A stretch of DNA of 64,000 nucleotides from an uncultured Elusimicrobia bacterium (GTDB lineage: Bacteria > Elusimicrobiota > Elusimicrobia > 2-01-FULL-59-12): positions 71,555 to 135,554 of the forward strand of contig CAYTWA010000007.1 of NCBI GenBank assembly GCA_964441955.1. The letters are read 5' to 3'. The position numbers were made by a program, and so were the translations under genes. The first letter of the stretch is position 1, and every line of letters starts with the position of its first letter. The notes under the pieces were generated by a model. It was not told where the DNA came from and ran no database searches. It saw nothing but the letters and a program-made list of their open reading frames with translations. Shown piece by piece: positions 2,701 to 44,070 of the stretch.

Positions 2701-4499
2701 TTCTTTTTCGCTCGACAGCGCCCCGTGTAGGGCGTGCCTCCTTGATTCGAGAGCTGCGGTGTCAATGGGAACGCCAATCTATTTTCTGCCTTAGCGTCAT
2801 TTTTGAAAAAGAAAACAGCAACGCTTTGGATTTGGCGGAATGGTTAGAGCGGTACCGCCCCTTGTCCCCACTCCTGCAGCGCAATGCACTCCAATCCGCT
2901 CAGTCGTATGGGTTTTTGAAGTTAAAAGAAACAACCCCAGCCGCCCTAAAGGAATGGCTGGGGCTTGCGACGTCTCTTTATCGCTGGGTTCTCGTGTCCG
3001 CCCCTTCCGAGAACTCAGAAAGTTTCGTGACGCTTCTCGATGCCGCAGACCTCCTGGTCACGGTCACCGTTTCGGGCGGACGGCCAGAAGACGATAGCCG
3101 CCTTTTACGGGATTGTCTCGAACGAGAGCGCTTCCCGTTGGCTTTCCATCAATGGGTTATCAATCGAGAGCCAAGAAGCTCAAAGCCATCGCCGATCCAT
3201 CCATTGAGCATTTTGCCGGAAGATCCCTTGCTAGGCATTCGCTGGCGAGAAGCGGTTCGCGGCCTGGCTGAAACCTTCAAACAAAAGCCCGCACTCTTTA
3301 AACCGCAAACGCCCCTTTCGCAAAAAGAGGAAACATCTCGGCAAGTGCTGGAGGATCTCAAAGCCCGAATACAGCCTCAGCTAGTTCAAGCCATGGAGCA
3401 ATCCCCCACTCAAGGAACCGAAAAAGTCCAAGCCGTATTGGCCGCGGCGTTAGTTGATGAAAGCCGTTTGCCGGTTGACCGCCAGCAGCGTGAAGAAGCG
3501 ATGCAACGTGTGCTTGAAGATGTGTTGGGGTTGGGGCCTATAGAGACGTTGCTTAAAGATCCCGAGGTTTCCGAAGTTATGGTTAACGGGCATGGGTGCG
3601 TCTACGTCGAAAAACGCGGAAAGCTGCACCATACGCCAATCCAGCTGGCGTCTGAAGCGCAGCTGCGCACATTGATCGATCGCATTGTGGCGCCGCTGGG
3701 CCGGAGGGTGGATGAATCCATGCCGCTTTGTGATGCGCGCTTAGCCGATGGCTCGCGAGTGAATATCGTATTGCCCCCGTTGGCGCTGGATGGCCCTACG
3801 CTTACCATCCGGAAATTTATGACAAAACGTTTGGCCTTTGATCAATTGGTCGAGTTAGGCTCAATGAGCGCCGCGATGGGAAGATTTTTAAGCGGGGCGG
3901 TGATGTCCCGTAAAAACATTTTGGTGTCGGGGGGGACGGGAAGCGGGAAAACCACGCTGCTCAATGCCCTCTCCTCTGCCATTCCTGACGATGAACGTAT
4001 TGTGACGATTGAAGATGCCGCGGAACTCAGACTTCAAAAACCCCATGTGGTGCGCTTGGAATCCCGTCCGCCTAATGCGGAGGGGCAAGGTGAAATTCCC
4101 ATCCGGCGGTTGGTGATCAATGCGCTCCGTATGCGGCCCGACCGCATTGTGATTGGCGAGTGCCGGGGTGGCGAAGCGCTCGACATGTTGCAGGCCATGA
4201 ACACGGGTCACGATGGGTCGCTGACCACGATTCATGCCAATACACCGCGGGATGCGCTCGGGCGTTTGGAGACCCTCGTGCTCATGGCGGGCATGGACTT
4301 GCCCGTGCGGGTGATCCGTGAACAAATTCGAAGTGCGATTCATCTTATTGTTCAGCAGGCACGTTTGCCTGATGGCTCCAGAAAGGTGACCTCTGTCACC
4401 GAAGTTACGGGGATGGAACAAGAGGTGCTGGTCACACAGGAATTGTTTCGTTTGCGAAACGGCCAGTTTGAAACGACGGGTCTGCGAGCGGCCTCATGA
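2682..4499 (+). CDS. cpaF: Tad pilus ATPase CpaF/TadA with ~200-aa N-terminal extension resembling a degenerate TadZ/CpaE (ParA-like C-terminal half)
   Basis: Walker A '[16 protein letters not shown]' and a T2SSE/VirB11-like core (..[33 protein letters not shown]..). The N-terminal region contains '..[29 protein letters not shown]..'. Confidence 0.85.
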
Positions 4500-5116
4500 T
4501 TATTCTTCTGGCTGTCGCTGGCCTTTCCTTTTTTATTCCCATTCTTTTGAAACGCTACCGCGCTGAAAAGCATCAACAGCTTTTGGCTCGCCAGTTGCGC
4601 GAATCGATAGCGGCGATGTCTCATGCGATGCGCGTGGGCGTTAATTTCCAACAAGCGCTGGCTTATGCCGCCCAAGAAGGAAGCGAGCCCTTGGCTGCCG
4701 AATGGCGACGCGTGCTAAATAACGTTCAAGTGGGCCGGCCTTTGGCCGATGCGTTGGGAGAATTGCCGGCGCGCGTGCCGGTGAGTGCGATGCATTGGTT
4801 TGTGGCGGCGGTTCAAATCACGCAAAGCACTGGGGGTTCGCTGGCGGATGTCTTGGCCACATTGGCCGAGACGCTTCAGGACCGCGAAACGTTGCGCGAT
4901 AAAGTGGCGGCACTCACGGCGCAAGGGAAAGCGTCCGGCATTCTTTTAAGTCTTCTTCCTTTCATTGTGATGGCGGCTCTTTGGGTCATCGTTCCGGATA
5001 TGGCAGGCCCGATGTTTGCCACGATGACCGGGCAGGCGATGTTAGCGGTGGTGATGGTGATGGTGTTTATCGGTGGGCTCATCATCCGCAAAATCGTCAC
5101 GATCGAGGTGGCTTAG
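4496..5116 (+). CDS. tadB: TadB (type II secretion system F-domain membrane protein)
   Basis: T2SSF-like sequence with flanking TM segments. It overlaps the cpaF stop (ATGA). Confidence 0.75.
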   Translation: MIILLAVAGLSFFIPILLKRYRAEKHQQLLARQLRESIAAMSHAMRVGVNFQQALAYAAQEGSEPLAAEWRRVLNNVQVGRPLADALGELPARVPVSAMHWFVAAVQITQSTGGSLADVLATLAETLQDRETLRDKVAALTAQGKASGILLSLLPFIVMAALWVIVPDMAGPMFATMTGQAMLAVVMVMVFIGGLIIRKIVTIEVA

Positions 5117-5117
5117 C

Positions 5118-5633
5118 ATGAGACCGTTATCGTTTTATGTGACCGCGCTTCAAGACTCCCAGAAACGAAAAAAACGATTTGCTCAAATCAGTGCCGCGCT
5201 CCCGGAAGCGCTTGATTTGCTCGTGGTGGTCATGCAGGCTGGGTTGGATTTCCAGGTGGCTTTGGAGGAATATTTAAACCGTGCCCCTAAGGGACCGCTT
5301 TGGGACGAGTTCTCACGTCTTCAGGCAGAAATTCGCACCGGTTCTTCGCGTGTGCAAGCTTTGCGAAGCTTACGGGCACGCGTCCCACTGCCTGCCTTAC
5401 AGGAAACGATGCAAACGCTGATCCAAGGCATGGAATTAGGCTCAAGTCTCACCCCGCTTCTGCGTACGCAAGCCAAGGCTCTGCGCATGCGCCGGTCCTT
5501 AGAAGCAGAAAAGCAAGCCGCGGTGGCGCCGCTAAAGTTAATGTTTCCGTTGTTCGTCTTTATTTTTCCAACGCTCTTTATAGCGCTGCTTGGGCCCGTG
5601 TTTCTGTCCATGTCCAAAGGCGGAATGCCGTGA
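5118..5633 (+). CDS. tadC: TadC (T2SSF-domain membrane protein)
   Basis: T2SSF-like sequence '..LPEALDLLVVVMQAGLDFQVALE..' with a C-terminal TM. Start at the ATG 2 nt after the tadB stop. Confidence 0.7.
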   Translation: MRPLSFYVTALQDSQKRKKRFAQISAALPEALDLLVVVMQAGLDFQVALEEYLNRAPKGPLWDEFSRLQAEIRTGSSRVQALRSLRARVPLPALQETMQTLIQGMELGSSLTPLLRTQAKALRMRRSLEAEKQAAVAPLKLMFPLFVFIFPTLFIALLGPVFLSMSKGGMP

Positions 5634-6553
5634 TGGGGTTGTTTGAAAAACGCGTGGTATTTGGCGCCGCTTTCCTGGCGCTGTCCATTCTTGTCATGGT
5701 CGCAATAGCGCTTCGGCGAACCGGACGCGAAACGCAAGAAGCGCTTCTTTCCCGCTCAATGGGGCCCGTGGTTTCTTTGATTGAAGCCGCGCATCGCGCG
5801 CAAGATGACCCGGCGCTTCAGCGCTTGGTGCATGCCATGGCCGTGTCTCCGGGCATGATCTGGGCCGGGGTTTTGGATGCGAAGGAGAAGCGGTTTGTGG
5901 TGCATAGTGATCCTGTTCAAATCGGCGAGCCTTGGAAGGGTGAATCGGTTTCATGGACAGCGCCCCTAGAAAATGGTGACGCGCTCTGGGGCCATTTGAT
6001 TGTTGGTTTCACTCCAGACGTTTTAGGGCGATTTCAACGACGCCTGTTTCTCTGGGGGGCGGGGGGTGGGGCGGTATTTGTTTTTTTATCGGTCCTCCAA
6101 GCCGGGTATGGGTTTCATCAAAAAAAACGATTTCAGGCAGAAACAAGCGATGCGGCAGCCGTTCAAGATGAGCTGCAAGAAGCGTTGGCGAAGGCTCACC
6201 ATCAAGCACAGGAACGAGACATCGTTTCAAGCCAGTGTCTTCAAAGTGCGTTAGAGCAAATTCCTCGCCCCTGCCTTTTTCTTGACCGGCACCAGCGGGT
6301 GGCCGCTTGCAATTCGATGGCCCCCCTTCTACTGGGCGCAGGGCTTCCCGCCGAATGGATGGGAAGGCCTTGGCAGGACATCCCCATGCTGGCTGACTGC
6401 GGGAAGCCTTTGGCGGAGTCGCTAGAAAACCCTCAGCGGACTTTTCGTGTCACGCTCCTGTCTCGGGGCGTGACCATCGATTGGTGGTCCTTGGCGGCTG
6501 TCTCTGGTATTTCTCCCGGAACATGGGTCACGCTTTATCCGACCTCGACTTGA
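5633..6553 (+). CDS. Hypothetical 2-TM membrane protein, translationally coupled to tadC
   Basis: ATG overlaps the tadC stop (tgATGg). It has two hydrophobic segments. The track ORF 5300..6553 has an implausible upstream extension that overlaps tadC. Confidence 0.4.
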   Translation: MGLFEKRVVFGAAFLALSILVMVAIALRRTGRETQEALLSRSMGPVVSLIEAAHRAQDDPALQRLVHAMAVSPGMIWAGVLDAKEKRFVVHSDPVQIGEPWKGESVSWTAPLENGDALWGHLIVGFTPDVLGRFQRRLFLWGAGGGAVFVFLSVLQAGYGFHQKKRFQAETSDAAAVQDELQEALAKAHHQAQERDIVSSQCLQSALEQIPRPCLFLDRHQRVAACNSMAPLLLGAGLPAEWMGRPWQDIPMLADCGKPLAESLENPQRTFRVTLLSRGVTIDWWSLAAVSGISPGTWVTLYPTST

Positions 6554-6558
6554 TAAAA

Positions 6559-6572
6559 CATACGTACGTATG
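6559..6572. promoter_or_regulatory. Perfect 14-bp palindrome CATACGTACGTATG, 13 bp upstream of the Y-family polymerase start codon (candidate SOS/LexA-type operator)
   Basis: Palindrome read directly in the sequence. Its position relative to a damage-inducible-type gene motivates the call. Confidence 0.4.
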
Positions 6573-6585
6573 ATATCCATGCGGC

Positions 6586-7812
6586 ATGGTTTCCTCCCAT
6601 CAGGTTCGCTGGTTGTTTGTGGATTTCAATGCGTACTTCGCTTCCGTAGAGCAGCAGGAAAATCCGGCGCTTCGCGGAAAGCCGGTAGGGGTGGTGCCGA
6701 TGATGAGCGATTCCACCTGCTGCATCGCCGCCAGTTACGAAGCCAAAGCGTTTGGCATAAAAACCGGGACGAACGTAGCCGAGGCGCGGTCATTGTGCCC
6801 CTCCATCCGCTTCGTCGAGGCGCGACATGGGGTGTATGTGAAATATCACCATGCGTTGGTCGACGCGGTGGATGAATGTATTCCGGTGGAGAGCGTTCTT
6901 TCAATTGATGAAATGGCCTGCCGCCTGACCGGGTCCCAGCAGGAGCTTCCCAACGCTTTGTCCGTAGCGGCTCACATTAAGCAAAACATTCGGCTGCGTG
7001 TCGGGGAATTTCTCAAATGTTCCATCGGGTTAGCCCCGAACCGATATTTGGCCAAAGTGGCCGGTGACATGCGTAAGCCTGACGGCCTCACGGTTATTCG
7101 TCCAGCGGATTTGCCTTTGATTTTGTGGCCGCTTAAACTGCGTGATTTGCCGGGCATAGGACGGCACATGGAAGAGCGGTTGTCCAGACACGGCATCCAC
7201 ACGATGAAAGAATTGTGTTCTCTGGAGTGCGCGCGCCTGCATGAGATATGGGGTGGCGTCGTGGGGGACCGTTTTTATTCCTGGCTCCGTGGAGAGGAAC
7301 CACACGAGCCGGCCACGCAGCGGCGAAGTGTCGGTCACTCCCATGTGCTTGAACCGCAGTGCCGGTCTTTGTCAGGGGCTTACAAGATTGCCCAGCAGCT
7401 CACGGCCAAAGCGGCGGTCCGCCTGCGGCGTATCGGCTGCCGGGCAGACGGCATGTCGGCGGCTATTCAGTTTTTGAAAGGCAATACATGGGCGGCTAAG
7501 ACAAGGCTTGGCGGAACCCAAGATACGCCAACATTCTTGAAAACGCTATCCGCCTTATGGGATGGGACTCCCCCCGGCATTCCCCTGTGGGTCGGCGTGA
7601 CCTTCTTTCCTGTAACCCCGGAGCATCTGCACACCCCTTCCCTATTCGATAACCCCAAGCAAGAACACCTCTGCGAAGTGATGGACCAAATCAACGAACG
7701 GTGGGGGCGCGACATGGCTTATTACGCCGCCTTAAAAGACGCCGAAGGCCGCGCCCCCTCTCGAATTGCCTTCACGCGCATCCCCGACCTTCGGGAATTC
7801 GATGAAGTATAA
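6586..7812 (+). CDS. dinB: Y-family DNA polymerase (DinB/Pol IV-like)
   Basis: 'WLFVDFNAYFASVEQ' and 'SIDEMACRL' match the Y-family palm motifs. The DxD motif reads DFN (second Asp replaced by Asn). Confidence 0.8.
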   Translation: MVSSHQVRWLFVDFNAYFASVEQQENPALRGKPVGVVPMMSDSTCCIAASYEAKAFGIKTGTNVAEARSLCPSIRFVEARHGVYVKYHHALVDAVDECIPVESVLSIDEMACRLTGSQQELPNALSVAAHIKQNIRLRVGEFLKCSIGLAPNRYLAKVAGDMRKPDGLTVIRPADLPLILWPLKLRDLPGIGRHMEERLSRHGIHTMKELCSLECARLHEIWGGVVGDRFYSWLRGEEPHEPATQRRSVGHSHVLEPQCRSLSGAYKIAQQLTAKAAVRLRRIGCRADGMSAAIQFLKGNTWAAKTRLGGTQDTPTFLKTLSALWDGTPPGIPLWVGVTFFPVTPEHLHTPSLFDNPKQEHLCEVMDQINERWGRDMAYYAALKDAEGRAPSRIAFTRIPDLREFDEV

Positions 7813-7823
7813 TTCGCGCATCT

Positions 7824-8288
7824 ATGAGGAGCGTTTTGGCCGCCCTTTCGGCCATTTTCATTTGTGGCACGTTGCATGCCAATCCTGCGCCTGTGGTCGC
7901 TTCAACGTCGCCCATCACCGAGATGCGAAATTCTCAGCTTTATGCGCACAACAAAAATTGGCTGAAAAGTTTTCCTTCCGCTTTCGTGGCGGCCAATATC
8001 CGCGGTGAGAATATGCAGTACGCCGAAAGGCGTTTAGCCGCGTTGGATTTGGTCCGCCAGCAACGAGATTTTGGCGTTGTTTCGGAATTAACTCTGGCGC
8101 TGGAAAAAGGAAGTTTTTTGGATTTTGAGATTCTTAGCATTTTGGAGGACTGGAAAGCCAAACGTGCCGTGCCGCTCCTGGAAAAAATCGCGAAAGACCC
8201 CACGCGTGACAAAACGTTGCGAGACCAAGCTGCGAAATCCGCAAGTTCGATCAGAGGCTTTAAACCGGCACCGCCTCCGAAGTTTTAA
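7824..8288 (+). CDS. Hypothetical secreted protein
   Basis: Signal-peptide-like N-terminus 'MRSVLAALSAIFICGTLHA'. No recognisable domain. Confidence 0.35.
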   Translation: MRSVLAALSAIFICGTLHANPAPVVASTSPITEMRNSQLYAHNKNWLKSFPSAFVAANIRGENMQYAERRLAALDLVRQQRDFGVVSELTLALEKGSFLDFEILSILEDWKAKRAVPLLEKIAKDPTRDKTLRDQAAKSASSIRGFKPAPPPKF

Positions 8289-8303
8289 ATTTGCCCTACT
8301 TTT

Positions 8304-9596
8304 ATGGCTGACGTCAAAATCAAAGCGCTGCAGTGTAAAGAATGCGGGCATCAATTTCCCGCCAAGGCGACGCACGTCTGCGAATTCTGCTTCGGGCCGT
8401 TGGAAGTGGTTTACGATTACGACGCGATCAAAGCCCGCGTCAGCCGCGCCTCGATTGAAAAAGGCCCGCGCAGCCTTTGGCGTTATTGGGATTTCCTGCC
8501 GGTGGAAACGCATGATCCGATCACGATCCAAGAAGGCTACACCCCGTTTTGGCACGCCAAGCATTTGGGCGAGCGCCTTGGCTTAAAAAATCTCTACATC
8601 AAAAACGATTCTGTAAATCCCACGTTCTCGTTTAAAGATCGTGTGGTGTCGACCGCCTTAACGCGTGCCCGAGAACTGGGTTTTGACACGGTGGCGTGCG
8701 CATCGACGGGCAACTTGGCGGGCGCCACCGGTGCTTACGCCGCCCACGCCAAACTGAAATCCTTTGTATTCATCCCCGCCGATCTCGAACCCAGCAAGGT
8801 GGTGGGCGCGGCCATTTACGGTCCCACGATCGTGGGCATCAACGGCAATTACGATCAAGTCAATAAGCTCTGTGCCGAAATCGCCGACATGTTTAAGTGG
8901 GCGTTTGTAAATGTCAACGTTCGTCCCTATTACGCGGAAGGTTCGAAAACGCTCGGCTTTGAAGTGGCCGAACAACTCGGTTGGCGCGCGCCGGATCATT
9001 GCGTTGTCCCCATGGCTAGCGGGTCGCTTTTGACCAAAATTTATAAGGGTCTCCAAGAATTCACCAAGGTGGGTTTGATTGCCGAACATAAGACGCGTAT
9101 GTCGGGGGCCCAAGCCGAAGGGTGCGCTCCGGTGGTGAATGCCTTTAAAGAAAAATCGGACATCATTAAACCGGTCAAACCCAACACGATTGCCAAGTCT
9201 TTGGCCATTGGAAACCCGGCGGATGGTTTTTATGCCCTCGATATCATCCAAAAAACGGGGGGAGCGGCCGAAAGTGTGACCGACCCGCAAATCGTAGATG
9301 GTATTTTCCTTTTGGCTAGCACCGAGGGGGTCTATACGGAGACCGCGGGGGGCGTCACCATTGCAACTTTAAAAAAGCTCGCGGAGTCTGGTAAAATTCG
9401 TCCCGACGAGGTCACGGTGGCCTATATCACAGGGAATGGCTACAAAACTCAGGAAGTCATCGCCGAAAAAGTGAAGAAACCCCTAGTGATCGAACCGTCG
9501 ATCGATCAATTCCGCGAGATTTACGAACAGCTTTCGAAGGAGACATCGCATGGCCATCAAAGTTCGCATTCCAGCCCCGTTACGCAAGCTCACTAA
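8304..9596 (+). CDS. thrC: Threonine synthase-family PLP enzyme with N-terminal Cys4 zinc ribbon
   Basis: PLP-lysine motif 'NPTFSFKDRVVS' of fold-type II PLP enzymes at ThrC length. N-terminal CxxC..CxxC. Confidence 0.8.
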   Translation: MADVKIKALQCKECGHQFPAKATHVCEFCFGPLEVVYDYDAIKARVSRASIEKGPRSLWRYWDFLPVETHDPITIQEGYTPFWHAKHLGERLGLKNLYIKNDSVNPTFSFKDRVVSTALTRARELGFDTVACASTGNLAGATGAYAAHAKLKSFVFIPADLEPSKVVGAAIYGPTIVGINGNYDQVNKLCAEIADMFKWAFVNVNVRPYYAEGSKTLGFEVAEQLGWRAPDHCVVPMASGSLLTKIYKGLQEFTKVGLIAEHKTRMSGAQAEGCAPVVNAFKEKSDIIKPVKPNTIAKSLAIGNPADGFYALDIIQKTGGAAESVTDPQIVDGIFLLASTEGVYTETAGGVTIATLKKLAESGKIRPDEVTVAYITGNGYKTQEVIAEKVKKPLVIEPSIDQFREIYEQLSKETSHGHQSSHSSPVTQAH

Positions 9597-9834: not shown

Positions 9835-10080
9835 GTGCCAAAAAGACAAGTCGAACTGATTTTTCCGCAAGACCAGATCAAAGAACCGGTCATCTACAAG
9901 ATGGCCAAAGCCATCGATGTCGTTTTCAACATCCGCCGTGCCAAAGTCACCACCCGCACGGGCGAAATCGTCCTAGAGCTCGAAACCAAAGACGACGCCA
10001 CCATGGACAAAGCCATTCAATTCCTCACCACCGCCGGCATCCAAGTCGAACCGATCACCCACTCTACGTTAGAGTCGTAA
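9835..10080 (+). CDS. Small NIL/ACT-like ferredoxin-fold protein (GTG start)
   Basis: 81 aa. The sequence 'VVFNIRRAKVTTRTGEIVLELE' resembles NIL-domain proteins. It is coupled to the MoaD-like gene. Confidence 0.35.
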   Translation: MPKRQVELIFPQDQIKEPVIYKMAKAIDVVFNIRRAKVTTRTGEIVLELETKDDATMDKAIQFLTTAGIQVEPITHSTLES

Positions 10081-10165
10081 GCACGCGAGGGAATCCGGCG
10101 AATCCGGCGGTTCGATACGACACTCACCGGCGGACCCGCCGGCTTCCCTCGCTAATTCACCTCCA
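10081..10165 (+). other. GC-rich nested hairpin (outer stem gcgagggaatccggcg / cgccggcttccctcgc) between the NIL-like gene and recQ
   Basis: Inverted repeat visible in the sequence. There is no T-run, so it is not a canonical intrinsic terminator. Confidence 0.4.
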
Positions 10166-10206
10166 ACGAGGGAATAAAATTGGGCCAAACCACTCTAAGC
10201 CTCACT

Positions 10207-12045
10207 ATGAATAACAACCTATTGAAATCTGTTTTTGGGCATGAGGCTTTTCGACCGGGGCAAGAGCAATTGATTCTGGCTTTGAAAGAGGGGCGAGATC
10301 TTTTGGGGGTGATGGCCACCGGCAGCGGGAAATCGCTTTGTTACCAGTATCCGGCGGTGCAGCGCGGTGGGCGGTGTTTGGTCGTGTCGCCGCTCATCAG
10401 TCTTATGGACGACCAGGTGAATAAGCTAAACCTCTGTGGGGTGGCGGCGGCCACATTGCACAGCCAGGCTTCTTTTTCGCAGCGGCAAGAGGTCTTAAGG
10501 CGCTGGGCGGCTGGGGCGCTCCGGTTTCTTTACGCCGCACCAGAACGGTTTTCAGATGAAGCCTTTATGGCGGCCCTCGAGACGTCCCGTCCGGATTATG
10601 TGGTGGTGGATGAAGCGCACTGCATTTCGCAATGGGGGCATGATTTTCGGCCGGAGTACCGCACGCTAGGCCAGCTCAAAGAACGATTCCGTCTTCCCAT
10701 CGCGGCTTTTACGGCTACCGCCACACCCCAAGTTCAGGAAGAAATCGTCGCCAATCTTAAGCTGGAGCAACCCCTGGTTCGTGTTCACGGGTTTTACCGG
10801 CCCAATCTCGCCTTCTCTGCCGTTATGGAGGCAGGTGCCCGGCAGCGGCTGGAGCGGATCTTGGATGAAACAGATGGGGATGGCGCGGTGATTGTGTATT
10901 GTTCCTCACGTAAACGGGTCGAAGAGTTGGCGGAGGACCTGCACGAGGCCGGCCGCCCCGCCTTTGCTTACCATGCCGGTTTGGATGGAAAGATCCGCGA
11001 AAAGGCGCATCGCCACTTTCGAGACGACGCGCGCGTGGTGCTGGTGGCCACCAATGCCTTTGGAATGGGCGTCGACCGGCCCGATGTGCGCGCGGTGATC
11101 CACGCACAACTTCCGGGGACAATCGAAGCTTATTACCAAGAAGCAGGCCGCGCTGGGCGTGATGGCTTGCCGGCCAAATGCATTCTGATGCACAGCCCAG
11201 GCGATATCGCGATCCACGAATTTTTTAATCGGCAATCGGTGGAGTCGATCCCAGCGGAGCGCCGGGAAGCATGGGAACGGCACAAGCAAGAGCAACTCGA
11301 TCTCATGCGCCGCTACGCCTACAGCGGCAGCTGCCGTCAGCAGGCGATGATGGAATATTTTGGCGATGCGGAAAGGCTCACCCGCGGCTGTGGTCAATGC
11401 GACAACTGCCAAACGCCAGAGGCAGAGCCTGTGGATGATCACACGCAAGAAACGGTACGCGTGTTGTTGTCTGGTGCCGCGCGATTAGAAGGCCGCTTTG
11501 GCAGCGGCCAGTTGACCGATCTTGTCACGGGAAGCGAATCCCAGCAAATCCGTCGTTATGGCCACGAGAAGCTGCCCACCTACGGCCGCTTAAAAGACAT
11601 GAACAAAAAACGCGTCCAAGCGATGATCCAAGCGTTAGTGCGACAGGGCTATATTCGCCAAGAGGGATTGCGCTATCCCGTGCTGGCCATCACCGATACC
11701 GGCCGTGAAGTCATGCACAACCGCACACAAGCGCAGTTGGGAGAATGGGAACCGAAGCCAAAGAAAAAGCGTGGGGACGTAGGGGGTGGGGGAAAGAGGG
11801 CGGGACGTACTTCTTCAAAGGCTGAAAGTCCATTGCGTGAAGCGCTTCGAAATTGGCGACTCATGACCTCGCAGAAATTAGGCGTACCGCCTTACACAAT
11901 CTTTTGGGATCGCACCCTGGACGAACTCTGCGAAAGTCGCCCCACAACTCCGGGCGAATTATTAGCCGTTTGGGGCATGGGCGAACAAAAATGCCGAAAG
12001 TTTGGCGACGAAATACTTAAGCTGGTCGCCTCACAACCGAAATAA
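10207..12045 (+). CDS. recQ: ATP-dependent DNA helicase RecQ
   Basis: '[14 protein letters not shown]', DEAH '[19 protein letters not shown]', RecQ-C zinc cluster '[19 protein letters not shown]', and a C-terminal HRDC. A TTG at 10180 is an alternative start. Confidence 0.9.
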
Positions 12046-39962: not shown

Positions 39963-40262
39963 TTATTTCGTTACTTTCTTTTCCATCATTTTGTCGAACT
40001 TAACCATTTGTTCCGGCGTTAAAAGCGCGCGTATTTGGTCCCGCGCCTCTTTTTCGGCCGCGTCGATCTTTTCATACTTTTGGGCTTTAATAGAATGGAC
40101 TTGGGTTTTTTGATCGGGCGTTAATTTTAAGTCAGCCGCGAACCTATCAAGTTTTTTACCGCGTTCCTCCGCCGTCATGGTGTCTTCATAAGCGTGGGTG
40201 AGATGCGGAACAGCGGCGCCCAGCAGCATTGCGGCCGCAAGGCCTGTGGTGAAGTTTTTCAT
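39963..40262 (-). CDS. Periplasmic LTXXQ-motif protein (Spy/CpxP/ZraP family)
   Basis: Signal peptide and two LTxxQ motifs ('LKLTPDQK', 'LLTPEQM'). Confidence 0.6.
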   Translation of the reverse strand: MKNFTTGLAAAMLLGAAVPHLTHAYEDTMTAEERGKKLDRFAADLKLTPDQKTQVHSIKAQKYEKIDAAEKEARDQIRALLTPEQMVKFDKMMEKKVTK

Positions 40263-40362
40263 GGTGTCCTCCGTGAATTTTAAGCGTCTGGGTAATTAGA
40301 CAGACACTTTACTTTGCGGTTACAACTGGTTTTCAAGAGGCCGTTTCAGTATAAACACGCCT

Positions 40363-40716
40363 ATGGCCGCTTTAGAAAAAGGAAAACAGGCTCCGAACTG
40401 GAAATTTAAAGACCAGGAGGGGAAAACCCACGCGCTTTGGGATTTTAGGCAAAAGCATCACACCATCCTTATCTACGAGCCCAAAACGACGGTTGAAAAG
40501 GCGAGGCAATGGCAGCAGGCTATTCACGCCGACCGCCAGCAATGGGACTGGCTTAATGTCCGTTTCTTTATTTTGAAAAAAGCGCCTGCGGAGCTTTTGC
40601 CCGGCGCTTATGTGATCGACCGATATGGGCGTCTTTGGAATTATTTCTCATCGGACCATTGGAGTTTCGCCGACCTGGAAAAAGATTTGATTTATTATGA
40701 AGCGAGGCATTGCTAA
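40363..40716 (+). CDS. Thioredoxin/peroxiredoxin-fold-like small protein lacking catalytic Cys, immediately upstream of top6B
   Basis: 'KGKQAPNWKFKDQEGKTHALWDFRQKHHTILIY' resembles a peroxiredoxin N-terminus, but there is no CxxC or peroxidatic Cys. Confidence 0.35.
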   Translation: MAALEKGKQAPNWKFKDQEGKTHALWDFRQKHHTILIYEPKTTVEKARQWQQAIHADRQQWDWLNVRFFILKKAPAELLPGAYVIDRYGRLWNYFSSDHWSFADLEKDLIYYEARHC

Positions 40717-40719
40717 GGA

Positions 40720-42336
40720 ATGGCCTTAAAAAAGAAACTCCCTGTCCAAAAAGAAGCCCCGGCGCTAAAGCCCCTTAAAAAAGAAGCCGCGACCGAAGCC
40801 GACCGCCAAGCCGCTAAGCAGCGGGATATCTCTGTCTCCGAATTTTTTCTAAAAAATCGTCATCTGTTGGGGTTTGATAACGCCAAAAAAGCGCTGCTCA
40901 CGACAATTAAGGAAGCGGTGGATAACAGTTTGGATGCCTGCGAAGAAGCCAAAATCCTTCCGGAAATTTATGTCGAGGTCAAAGGACTGGACCAGGCGGA
41001 TCGTTTTGTCGTGATCGTGGAAGACAATGGCCCCGGCATTGTAAAGGAACAAATCCCCAGCATCTTTGCCAAACTGCTCTACGGGTCTAAATTTCATGCC
41101 ATGAAGCAGGCGCGCGGCCAACAGGGGATCGGCATTTCAGCGGCTGGCATGTATGGCCAACTGACTACAGGCGTGCCGACTCGCATCACCTCTCGCATCT
41201 CGGCCAAGAAGCCGGCGCATTATTTTGAACTCCAAATTGATACGGCTAAAAACAAGCCCACGATCGTCAAAGACGAAGTGATTCACTGGAAAAAACCGCA
41301 TGGCACGAAGGTGCAAATCGAACTAGAAGCAAAATACCAAAAGGGCCCGCGCTCGGTGGATGATTACATCCGCCAAACGGCGCTCGCCAACCCGCACGCG
41401 ACGATTCACTTTAAAAGCCCCGAAGGCGACAAGGCGGACTACAAGGCGGCGACTAAAAAGTTGCCTGTTGCGTCGAAAGAAATCAAGCCGCATCCGCATG
41501 GGGTGGAGCTTGGCATCTTAATGAAAATGCTCAAATCCACCAACGCCCGAAAAGTGGGAGCATTTTTATCGAAAGATTTTGCCCGAGTTTCGCCGCGTGT
41601 GGCGCATGCGATCTTAAAAGCGGCGGGGATTGAGGCGGATGCCAAACCAGCCGAGATCGCCCATCAAGAAGCCGACAAACTTCACCGCGCCATAAGCGCC
41701 ACGAAATTGATGAACCCCCCGACCAATTGCCTCTCTCCTATCGGTGAAGCGGCGATGCTTGCTGGGATTAAGGAAAACGTCGAAGCCGACTTTTACACCG
41801 CTTTGACGCGGCCGCCTTCGGTGTACCGCGGCAACCCGTTTCAAATTGAAGTGGCCCTTGCTTATGGCGGTAAGATGCCGCCCGAGGAACTGGCCCAGCT
41901 GCTGCGGTTTGCCAACCGCGTGCCGCTTCTCTATCAGCAAAGTGCGTGCGCCACCACCAAAAGCGTTTTGCAGATGGGTTGGAAAAACTATGGCGTCAAC
42001 CAATCGAAAGGGGCGCTGCCTACGGCCCCGCTTATGATAGCGGTTCACATGGCGAGCGTTTGGGTGCCCTTTACCTCGGAATCCAAGGAAGCGATCGCTT
42101 CCTACGAGGAAATCATTAAAGAAATCAAATTGGCGCTTCAAGAATGCGGACGCCGGCTGGATGCCTATTTGCGCCGCGGCGCGCGCGAAGCGGAGGCGAA
42201 GCGCAAACGCGACTACATTAAGTCCTACCTGCCGCACATCGGCATCGGCTTGCGTGAGATATTAGGCTTCAAGGAAAAAGAGCAGAAGAAGGTTTTGAAT
42301 TTGCTCATCGACATCCTGGAAAAGGAGCGCGCCTAA
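40720..42336 (+). CDS. top6B: DNA topoisomerase VI subunit B (GHKL/Bergerat ATPase)
   Basis: N-box 'EAVDNSLDA', G-boxes 'DNGPGI' and 'GQQGIGISAA', H2TH and transducer regions. Confidence 0.85.
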   Translation: MALKKKLPVQKEAPALKPLKKEAATEADRQAAKQRDISVSEFFLKNRHLLGFDNAKKALLTTIKEAVDNSLDACEEAKILPEIYVEVKGLDQADRFVVIVEDNGPGIVKEQIPSIFAKLLYGSKFHAMKQARGQQGIGISAAGMYGQLTTGVPTRITSRISAKKPAHYFELQIDTAKNKPTIVKDEVIHWKKPHGTKVQIELEAKYQKGPRSVDDYIRQTALANPHATIHFKSPEGDKADYKAATKKLPVASKEIKPHPHGVELGILMKMLKSTNARKVGAFLSKDFARVSPRVAHAILKAAGIEADAKPAEIAHQEADKLHRAISATKLMNPPTNCLSPIGEAAMLAGIKENVEADFYTALTRPPSVYRGNPFQIEVALAYGGKMPPEELAQLLRFANRVPLLYQQSACATTKSVLQMGWKNYGVNQSKGALPTAPLMIAVHMASVWVPFTSESKEAIASYEEIIKEIKLALQECGRRLDAYLRRGAREAEAKRKRDYIKSYLPHIGIGLREILGFKEKEQKKVLNLLIDILEKERA

Positions 42337-43427
42337 TGGACCGATCCACCGAAAAGTTAATTCACCAGGACGCCGAAAAGCTGTACCAGGAAATTTTGAA
42401 GAAAAAAATACCGATGCTGGACTTCCCCATGCGCAGCCTTGAGAACGTCACCTACGACAAGAAGAAGGGCTATTTTGAAATCGGGGATCGCGTGGTGGAA
42501 CGCACGCTGTCCTACAACACGATTAAAACCTTCGCGCAAACGGTTCGCATGATGGCGCTCTCGCATGAGATCGTCAAAAAAGACGATATGGCCACCAAAC
42601 GGGAGGCGTATTACGTCTCTAAAAATTGGGGCGAAGCGCGTTTTACCGAACAGCCGGAGTCCGACACGATCATGGACGACATCGAAGCTCATTTTCGTTT
42701 GAACCGGGAGAAGCTGGGTTTTATTCCGGAGGAAAAAGGCGGCGACATCGTGGGGAAACTCACCGTCATCGACAAAGACCCCAACACCGGCAAAGAGATC
42801 CGCATCGACTGTACGGGTTTTGGCTCCGGCGCTTATTCCATTCCAACCGATTGCGAGGGGCTTAAGTTTGAAACCAAAGCCAAATACATTTTGGCCATCG
42901 AAACGGCCGGCATGTTTCAGCGGCTTGTGAAGCATAACTTCTACACCACGGATAACTGCATTTTAATTTCCATGGGCGGAGTGCCGACGCGTGCATGCCG
43001 CCGGTTTATTCGCCGCTTAGCCGATGAACACAAGCTTCCGGTGTACGCCTTCGTGGACGGCGATCCGTACGGCATGACGAACATTTACCGAACGCTGAAG
43101 GTGGGGTCGGGCAATAACGCGCATTTAAACACCTTCTTTTGCGTTCCACAGGCGAGTTACCTAGGCGTAACCCCACAGGACATCATCGACTTTAAACTAA
43201 AAGACGCCACACACCCTCTCGCCGAAGTCGACATCAAGCGCGCCAAAGACGCCTTAAAAAGCGATCCCTTCATCAAGGCGCACAAACCGTGGCGAGACGC
43301 CATCGAACAGATGCTCGAAATGGGTGTGCGCGTCGAACAGCAGGCCTTCGCCAAACACGGCCTTAACCACGTGATCGAAAAATATCTGCCCATCAAACTG
43401 AAAAAGCCCTCCAAATTTTTGCCCTGA
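42336..43427 (+). CDS. top6A: DNA topoisomerase VI subunit A (Spo11-like; WHD + Toprim)
   Basis: 'KREAYYVSKNW' carries the catalytic Tyr. Toprim 'LAIETAGMF..FVDGDPYG'. Start overlaps the top6B stop. Confidence 0.85.
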   Translation: MDRSTEKLIHQDAEKLYQEILKKKIPMLDFPMRSLENVTYDKKKGYFEIGDRVVERTLSYNTIKTFAQTVRMMALSHEIVKKDDMATKREAYYVSKNWGEARFTEQPESDTIMDDIEAHFRLNREKLGFIPEEKGGDIVGKLTVIDKDPNTGKEIRIDCTGFGSGAYSIPTDCEGLKFETKAKYILAIETAGMFQRLVKHNFYTTDNCILISMGGVPTRACRRFIRRLADEHKLPVYAFVDGDPYGMTNIYRTLKVGSGNNAHLNTFFCVPQASYLGVTPQDIIDFKLKDATHPLAEVDIKRAKDALKSDPFIKAHKPWRDAIEQMLEMGVRVEQQAFAKHGLNHVIEKYLPIKLKKPSKFLP

Positions 43428-43500: not shown

Positions 43501-44070
43501 ATGTCTATGTTAAACCTTAAGTCTAAGACCGATGCGATTTCGATGCTGATGGAGGATCACGAAAAAGTCAAAGGCCTCTTTGATCAGTTTGAAAAAGCAG
43601 ACAACCACTCGCAAAAAATGAAGTGCGTTGAAAAAGCCATCGAAGAATTAAAGGTACACGCCGCCATCGAAGAAGAAATTTTTTACCCAGCCGTGCGCCA
43701 GAAATTAGACGACCCTGAAGGCATCATGGAAGAGGCTGATGAAGAGCACCATGTCGCCAAAGTGCTCATCGCCGAACTCGACATGATGACCGGCAAAGAA
43801 GAACACTGGGAAGCAAAGTTCACCGTTTTAGCGGAAAATATCCGCCACCATATTAAGGAGGAAGAAGGCGAGATGCTGCCCGAGGCACGGAAAACGCCGA
43901 TTGATTTCGAAGCCTTAGGCGCTCAAATGATGGCGCGGAAAAAAGAACTTCAGGAAAAGGGCGTCCCGCCGGATGCCGAAGCCAAAATGGTGAAAAAAAG
44001 CGGCTTACGCGGAGACAGCCCTGCAAAACACGCGCAGAAAAAAGTGACTGTGCCCCTTCAGTCCAACTAA
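43501..44070 (+). CDS. Hemerythrin HHE cation-binding domain protein
   Basis: 'MEDHEKV..LKVHAAIEEEIFYP..EEHHVAK..HHIKEEEGEM' His/Glu ligand pattern. Confidence 0.75.
   Translation: MSMLNLKSKTDAISMLMEDHEKVKGLFDQFEKADNHSQKMKCVEKAIEELKVHAAIEEEIFYPAVRQKLDDPEGIMEEADEEHHVAKVLIAELDMMTGKEEHWEAKFTVLAENIRHHIKEEEGEMLPEARKTPIDFEALGAQMMARKKELQEKGVPPDAEAKMVKKSGLRGDSPAKHAQKKVTVPLQSN

Follow-up and report, generated by a model that had tools for sequence, protein, structure and literature searches.

The window analyzed here is a 64,000-nt stretch of contig CAYTWA010000007.1 (GenBank assembly GCA_964441955.1, positions 71,555 to 135,554), from an uncultured Elusimicrobia bacterium. It carries top6B and top6A, the genes for the two subunits of topoisomerase VI (topo VI), and a small gene for a thioredoxin-fold protein directly before them. 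These three open reading frames (ORFs) all lie on the plus strand, encode proteins of 538, 363 and 117 amino acids (aa), respectively, and sit exactly where an earlier note on this DNA had placed them (Table 1). That note had described a bacterial type IIB topoisomerase whose B and A subunits are encoded by separate, overlapping genes, which the domains, motifs and 1-nt overlap confirm. It had also suggested that the small gene encodes an accessory subunit, a proposal contradicted by the distribution of the gene described below. With a probability of about 0.88, the pair is a canonical bacterial topo VI in Elusimicrobiota and likely a dedicated decatenase, and the small gene is a neighbor brought in by rearrangement and not a subunit.

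Table 1. Features of the topo VI locus, in window positions.
Feature	Position	Strand	Description or basis
top6B, topoisomerase VI subunit B	40720..42336	+	GHKL/Bergerat ATPase, H2TH and transducer; without Ig-like C-terminal domain
top6A, topoisomerase VI subunit A	42336..43427	+	winged-helix/CAP domain with catalytic Tyr, and Toprim
Small thioredoxin/peroxiredoxin-fold gene	40363..40716	+	C-terminal YYEARHC; family alignment, AlphaFold (AF2) model, Foldseek
Spy/LTXXQ-like periplasmic protein gene	39963-40262	minus	divergent, directly upstream of the small gene
Intergenic region, 100 bp	40263..40362		between the divergent Spy/LTXXQ-like gene and the small gene

Top6B matches the NCBIfam equivalog model NF003218 at 702 bits (cutoff 274) over residues 27-531, and this nearly full-length match implies that the H2TH region is present. 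Among Pfam domains, HATPase_c is found at 9e-10 and Topo-VIb_trans at 1.1e-60, the latter over the whole model (1-159 of 159). The ATP-binding motifs EAVDNSLDA (residues 65-73), EDNGPG (101-106) and GQQGIGIS (133-140) align with those of Methanosarcina mazei Top6B. The transducer motif TSESK (452-456) falls within a VPFTSESK stretch that is identical in the M. mazei protein, and the Lys of this loop is what we take to be the “switch lysine.” Alignment to M. mazei Top6B (2q2e_B) scores 534 bits and covers residues 6-494 of the 621 in that protein. Because the alignment ends at residue 494, the window protein is read as having no Ig-like C-terminal domain, as is reported for bacterial Top6B (Allen and Maxwell, 2024; PMC11302465).

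At its N-terminus, Top6B carries a 26-residue Lys-rich tail ahead of the NF003218 match. Bacterial Top6B proteins have a variable Lys/Arg-rich tail at this end that is not alignable to archaeal structures. Counted upstream of an S[VI][SA]EFF motif from the first ATG, so that lengths may be over-extended, the tail comprises 37 aa with 10 Lys and Arg residues in the window (40720-40830), 66 aa with 21 in locus L123, 67 aa with 22 in L087, and 178 aa with 52 in the Latescibacterota locus L066; L090 is tailed as well. Tails in DPANN-labelled loci are short and non-basic (25-28 aa). The tail may be a built-in DNA-binding extension.

Top6A has matches above threshold to the Pfam domains TP6A_N (2e-15), Topo_VI_alpha (2.7e-16) and TOP6A-Spo11_Toprim (2e-55). 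It aligns to Methanocaldococcus jannaschii Top6A (1d3y) at 357 bits, with 54.5% identity over 303 columns. The catalytic context KREAYY (residues 88-93, with R89 and Y93) aligns to LREAYY of the M. jannaschii enzyme, and the acidic residues of the Toprim domain are found as E189 in AIETAG and D241 and D243 in VDGDPYG. R89, Y92, Y93, E189, D241 and D243 are invariant in a 30-sequence Top6A alignment of relatives.

A different reading of the pair is a Top6-derived element, namely a Wadjet/Mks-type defense nuclease, a topo VIII or a mini-A. It draws on a weak match of the Top6A Toprim region to JetD models (31 bits, E 3e-8), which is limited to the Toprim region that these proteins share. Top6B, by contrast, is matched at equivalog level over its full length, transducer domain included; B and A are made as two polypeptides, whereas those of topo VIII are fused; the context is chromosomal; and in a tree the Top6A sequences mostly group by phylum. 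Neither Top6B nor the neighboring genes match any PADLOC defense model, and no JetABC or Mks genes are present. Derivation from topo VI toward another function is therefore exceedingly improbable, and the defense-system interpretation was set aside.

The small protein belongs to a family of 28 unnamed protein clusters (35-67% identity). An AF2 model built from the family alignment reached a pLDDT of 93.7 and a pTM of 0.86, and its best Foldseek matches in the PDB are Bcp1/PrxQ, Prx1 and a thiol-disulfide oxidoreductase (E about 1e-5, TM 0.6-0.74, 10-18% identity). The model and these matches support the peroxiredoxin-like thioredoxin fold that had been proposed for the protein. Sequence similarity to Pfam AhpC-TSA is weak: the window protein scores 16.5 bits against a threshold of 26, and 17 of the 28 family members give an N-terminal match that is always below threshold (best E 1e-4). 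The peroxidatic Cys of the PxxxT/SxxC motif is absent; the sequence at residues 40-47 is PKTTVEKA, and across the 28 members this stretch has no conserved Cys. The earlier label “Cys-less” holds for the peroxidatic position but not for the protein as a whole, which has a single Cys, C117, as its last residue within a near-invariant YYEARHC. Other conserved motifs are WDFRQKxH (26-33), W63-L64, G81 and DRYG (86-89), and the window copy keeps all family-conserved residues. The family appears to be an uncatalogued offshoot of AhpC/TSA.

The genomic distribution of this family bears directly on whether the protein belongs to topo VI. From the top6 side, 80 genome loci with up to 10 kb of flank were searched by tblastn at E<=1e-3, and none contained a homolog of the small gene (0/80). 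The closest relatives with usable upstream sequence, whose Top6A identity ranges from about 85% to at least 90%, returned only noise matches at E<=10. From the other side, the small gene was located in 36 further loci (L001-L008 and L095-L122), none of which has top6A or top6B nearby. In 31 of the 36 it directly follows a gene for a GAF-PAS protein, the end of which meets or overlaps its start codon; the small gene lies at about 8001-8348 or 6001-6351 in most of them. The two genes form part of a conserved block that runs from an NTP-transferase through tyrosyl-tRNA synthetase (TyrRS), M23 peptidase, GBBH-like, TPR, unknown and GAF-PAS genes to the small gene and an unknown gene encoding about 230 aa. 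None of the usual neighbors (NTP-transferase, TyrRS, M23, GBBH-like, TPR, GAF, the unknown of about 247 aa, BON and radical SAM) occurs in the window, where the sole GAF-like match is a weak one inside an unrelated histidine kinase. Apart from the window, the order small gene-top6B was seen only in a single Logan contig, identical in sequence.

In the accessory-subunit reading, the small protein would serve topo VI as a lineage-specific accessory or regulatory component, comparable in role to the plant proteins RHL1/BIN4; it could, for instance, be a redox sensor that works through its C-terminal His-Cys. The arrangement in the window lends it some color, since the two genes share a strand and a reading frame, are 3 nt apart and have no promoter- or terminator-like site between them, and the protein itself is real, conserved and well folded in the model. 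Against this stand the lack of co-occurrence in the 80 genome loci and the closest relatives, and the GAF-PAS partnership, in 31 of 36 loci, of homologs that are never found near top6. The retention of every family-conserved residue in the window copy gives no sign of a new function, and the literature finds no accessory proteins of bacterial topo VI (PMC11302465). The small gene is absent from all other top6 loci examined, an outcome that the earlier note had itself named as contradicting its suggestion. An accessory role is thus very unlikely. The small gene is, judging from these gene neighborhoods, very probably a chance neighbor of topo VI, and a rearrangement would have set it directly before top6B. 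In its native setting, the most plausible role of the small protein would be to partner the GAF-PAS sensor, with its C-terminal His-Cys serving as a thiol or metal relay.

Several further observations concern the loci that carry the small gene. In L005, the region 3′ of the small gene (3397-7175) encodes an AmmeMemoRadiSam radical SAM enzyme and a Memo/AMMECR1 fusion, and in L003 (8001-10563) a PA0069-family radical SAM gene lies 3′ of it on the opposite strand. JGI sample 3300015615 is the source of both L001, a 943-kb contig in which the small gene accompanies GAF-PAS, and L123, a 49-kb contig whose Top6A is at least 90% identical to that of the window. If L001 and L123 come from one organism, the small gene and top6A are unlinked in that genome.

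The surroundings of topo VI genes vary among relatives. In most of 69 loci top6B lies directly 5′ of top6A. The gene 5′ of top6B is ExoIII-like in L011 (86% Top6A identity) and a PAP2 gene in the four contigs L090-L093 (91%); small toxin-antitoxin-like ORFs occupy the position in L012 (85%), and an acyltransferase/hydrolase gene does so in L123, which falls in the 90% Top6A cluster. When all ORFs in the 2 kb before top6B or the 2 kb after top6A were clustered, no shared family was present in more than 6 of 55 upstream loci or more than 4 of 64 downstream loci. The 55 upstream loci each have at least 600 nt before top6B and include the window and three contigs of the closest relatives. The clusters that were found follow single lineages. 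Thus, top6BA is a compact two-gene cassette with a different neighborhood in each relative examined, and the flanks of bacterial top6BA hold no conserved third gene.

Two leads on genes around top6BA were considered and rejected. One was a possible conserved partner, a cluster of ORFs abutting top6B in six loci; it proved to be a KH-domain (aDim2-like) gene in L047, L077, L085 and L089, which are all among six archaeon-labelled metagenome-assembled genomes (MAGs), and so represents local archaeal synteny. The other was suggested by the clusters of IHF-histone, IHF-like and topo VI-like genes described for Elusimicrobiota and Omnitrophota (PMC11390915), and no histone-fold or IHF-like gene flanks the cassette here.

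Within the window, the spacing of the three genes is tight. The small gene ends with TAA (40714-40716), which is followed by GGA and then by the ATG of top6B, so that AGGA stands directly before this start codon. The stop of top6B and the start of top6A share one nucleotide (TAATG), with AAGGAG 8 nt upstream. The small gene and top6B are in one reading frame with only TAA GGA between them, which would occur by accident one time in three. The stop codon of the small gene is taken as genuine, and not as a site of readthrough into a fusion, because the terminal Cys is invariant. A consensus scan for promoters and for terminators on the plus strand, whose counts were near those of the shuffled background, placed no site between the small gene, top6B and top6A; therefore, the three genes are probably co-transcribed, as far as sequence signals can tell. 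Since neither a promoter-sized gap nor a plus-strand terminator-like site divides them, their promoter presumably lies in the 100-bp region 5′ of the small gene, in which the same scan recorded no sigma-70 consensus match.

A gene for a hemerythrin-domain protein (43501-44070, plus strand) follows 73 nt 3′ of top6A, with no terminator-like site between. Its product gives a partial, below-cutoff match to the PA2171 family of ribosome-binding persister proteins, and the gene was not seen in this position in the relatives examined. Scans of the window for tRNAs and Rfam families returned no matches.

Topo VI is typical of archaea, and the earlier note had raised the prospect that the genes sit on a contaminating archaeal contig. 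Such a contaminated or mis-binned origin could appeal to the 54.5% identity of Top6A to the M. jannaschii enzyme and to the Woesearchaeota or Methanosarcinales labels on some MAGs with Top6A relatives at 67-70%. The remainder of the window speaks for a bacterium. Flanking genes encode a T2SSE ATPase, RecQ with RQC/HRDC, a HAMP-HisKA histidine kinase, FeoB, a Na/H exchanger, a DinB-type polymerase, a DegP-like protease with PDZ, and methionyl-tRNA synthetase (MetRS); the protease, RecQ-HRDC, the kinase and the Spy/LTXXQ-like gene all argue against an archaeal contig. MetRS was chosen as a marker independent of the top6 genes, which are prone to horizontal gene transfer (HGT), and shows 74% identity to a protein from an Elusimicrobiota MAG. 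Its other named matches, at about 50-57%, are mostly from Elusimicrobiota and Endomicrobiales, with a few from Chloroflexota. Composition and GC content are even along the window, and Top6A itself falls in an Elusimicrobiota clade. An archaeal source is consequently almost inconceivable, and the sequence evidence indicates that the contig is bacterial and its host an Elusimicrobiota bacterium.

Relatives of this topo VI are numerous. At least 8000 Top6A relatives were found at E<1e-30, and the named ones at about 70-83% identity come from Verrucomicrobia, Elusimicrobia, Scalindua, Deltaproteobacteria and Krumholzibacteria; in NCBI records, certain proteins from Elusimicrobia MAGs already bear the name topoisomerase VI. 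When GTDB species were scanned with one genome each, at least 582 species-level genomes had a Top6A relative, across many phyla. Elusimicrobiota MAGs supply the best three matches listed (94, 86 and 85% identity). Relatives at 66-72% belong to Acidobacteriota, Planctomycetota, Eisenbacteria, Gemmatimonadota, Myxococcota, Latescibacterota, Fibrobacterota and others, together with a few MAGs labelled Woesearchaeota or Methanosarcinales. The enzyme had been called only sporadic in bacteria, which fits the wording of the literature; yet close relatives are spread over these many genomes and phyla.

In a neighbor-joining (NJ) tree of Top6A, the window sequence lies in a coherent Elusimicrobiota clade nested in a bacterial clade, where sequences group mostly by phylum, and DPANN-labelled sequences are basal. 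Bacterial topo VI has been described as two clusters acquired from archaea by HGT, one near Methanococcales and the other near DPANN and Euryarchaeota, with occurrences reported in 17 bacterial families; Elusimicrobiota go unmentioned in the main text of that survey (Allen and Maxwell, 2024; PMC11302465). The placement of the window Top6A agrees with this two-cluster picture.

Two groups of loci stand apart in this set. The Planctomycetota loci L052, L054, L056, L058, L067 and L082 (Anaerohalosphaeraceae, Pirellulales and others) differ from most other loci in having top6A without top6B in their flanks, which span up to 10 kb per side and less at contig ends. The lone gene lies at about 10001-11060, except in L054 (7954-9024), and the six form one NJ clade with L035, whose flanks are about 2 kb. 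In the second group, a KH-domain (aDim2/Pno1-like) ORF of about 170-180 aa abuts top6B in L047 (where it ends at about 9470-9480), L077, L085 and L089; this ORF supports a truly archaeal origin of the four MAGs. These four loci bear the labels archaeon, Woesearchaeota or Methanosarcinales, and their Top6A has 67-70% identity to the bacterial clade.

By analogy with archaeal enzymology, two Top6B and two Top6A subunits would assemble into an A2B2 enzyme. ATP binding would dimerize the GHKL domains of Top6B and capture one DNA duplex. Tyr93 of Top6A, with Mg2+ held at E189, D241 and D243 of the Toprim domain, would then transiently cut a second duplex, through which the captured duplex would pass, leaving the DNA unlinked or relaxed.

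What such an enzyme would do in the cell depends on its companions. As had been noted, genes for gyrase and topo IV are absent from the window, the scope of this result: each ORF of at least 580 aa has a different family assignment (T2SSE ATPase, RecQ, MetRS, histidine kinase, Na/H exchanger, FeoB, a phosphodiesterase and a glucodextranase-like protein). Gyrase (GyrA and GyrB) is found in all 17 topo VI-bearing bacterial families, and topo IV is absent from topo VI-bearing bacteria outside Pseudomonadota and Terrabacteria (PMC11302465). Because of this pattern, topo VI would most likely replace topo IV as the dedicated decatenase of the cell and work beside gyrase. A topo VI that is redundant, a third type II enzyme next to both gyrase and topo IV and not the main decatenase, is the less probable arrangement and a rather unlikely one, given that Elusimicrobiota lie outside Pseudomonadota and Terrabacteria, where the surveyed topo VI bacteria have no topo IV (PMC11302465).

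Some observations count against the reading of a canonical topo VI with an unrelated small neighbor. None of the six NCBIfam Top6A sub-models, which are narrow equivalogs, is matched above its cutoff by Top6A (best 459.7 against 675), and the Top6A tree is a rough NJ tree, rooted on M. jannaschii and carrying no support values. The decatenase role is a prediction from the literature. As for the small gene, the contig of the nearest genome relative (L010, 94% Top6A identity) spans 1.9 kb and lacks the region 5′ of top6B, and the 3-nt spacing and AGGA point to co-transcription with top6B in this genome and perhaps to translational coupling. A functional link between the small gene and top6 that is specific to this species is nevertheless highly improbable. 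The same low standing applies to a young, species-specific co-option in which the rearranged His-Cys thioredoxin-fold protein would now be a redox-responsive modulator of topo VI. In that case, the protein would be an accessory factor of very recent origin, confined to one species and seen shortly after the operon fused.

The identification of a canonical topo VI in this window adds Elusimicrobiota to the bacterial phyla with such an enzyme, a kind already described in the literature. Together with the species-level genomes counted above, it indicates that bacterial topo VI extends far wider in uncultured lineages than the 17 cultured families of the 2024 survey. The lack of a conserved third gene next to bacterial top6BA agrees with the absence of RHL1/BIN4-type partners that is reported for organisms other than eukaryotes. 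Should an Elusimicrobiota genome prove to have no topo IV, the topo VI it encodes would reasonably be chosen for biochemical work on a bacterial type IIB decatenase.

RHL1 and BIN4, the plant topo VI partners invoked for the small protein, are reported to be absent from bacteria and archaea (PMC11302465). The likeness extends only to the idea of a small extra partner, and the small protein differs from both in its thioredoxin fold, in having no conserved linkage to top6 and in showing no evident DNA-binding character. With the AhpC/TSA peroxiredoxins (Bcp/PrxQ, Prx1) it shares a thioredoxin/peroxiredoxin-like fold and weak N-terminal sequence similarity. It is, however, about 35 residues shorter, does not have the PxxxTxxC motif, and has motifs and a GAF-PAS gene neighbor of its own.

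Like the surveyed bacterial enzymes (PMC11302465), this topo VI is encoded by separate, adjacent B and A genes, with a B subunit made of GHKL and transducer domains without an Ig-like C-terminal domain and an A subunit made of a winged-helix domain and Toprim; it falls within or beside archaeal sequences, close to DPANN-labelled ones, and has no RHL1/BIN4-type partners. It differs from them in its host phylum, with Elusimicrobiota missing from the 17 families named in the main text, and in the short Lys-rich tail of Top6B. In the archaeal topo VI structures (M. mazei 2q2e, Saccharolobus shibatae 2zbk and M. jannaschii 1d3y), every catalytic and ATP-binding motif aligns with its counterpart here. 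The window Top6B is distinguished from that of M. mazei by the missing Ig-like C-terminal domain (538 against 621 aa), and the system as a whole differs from archaeal topo VI in its host, a bacterium that presumably has gyrase too.

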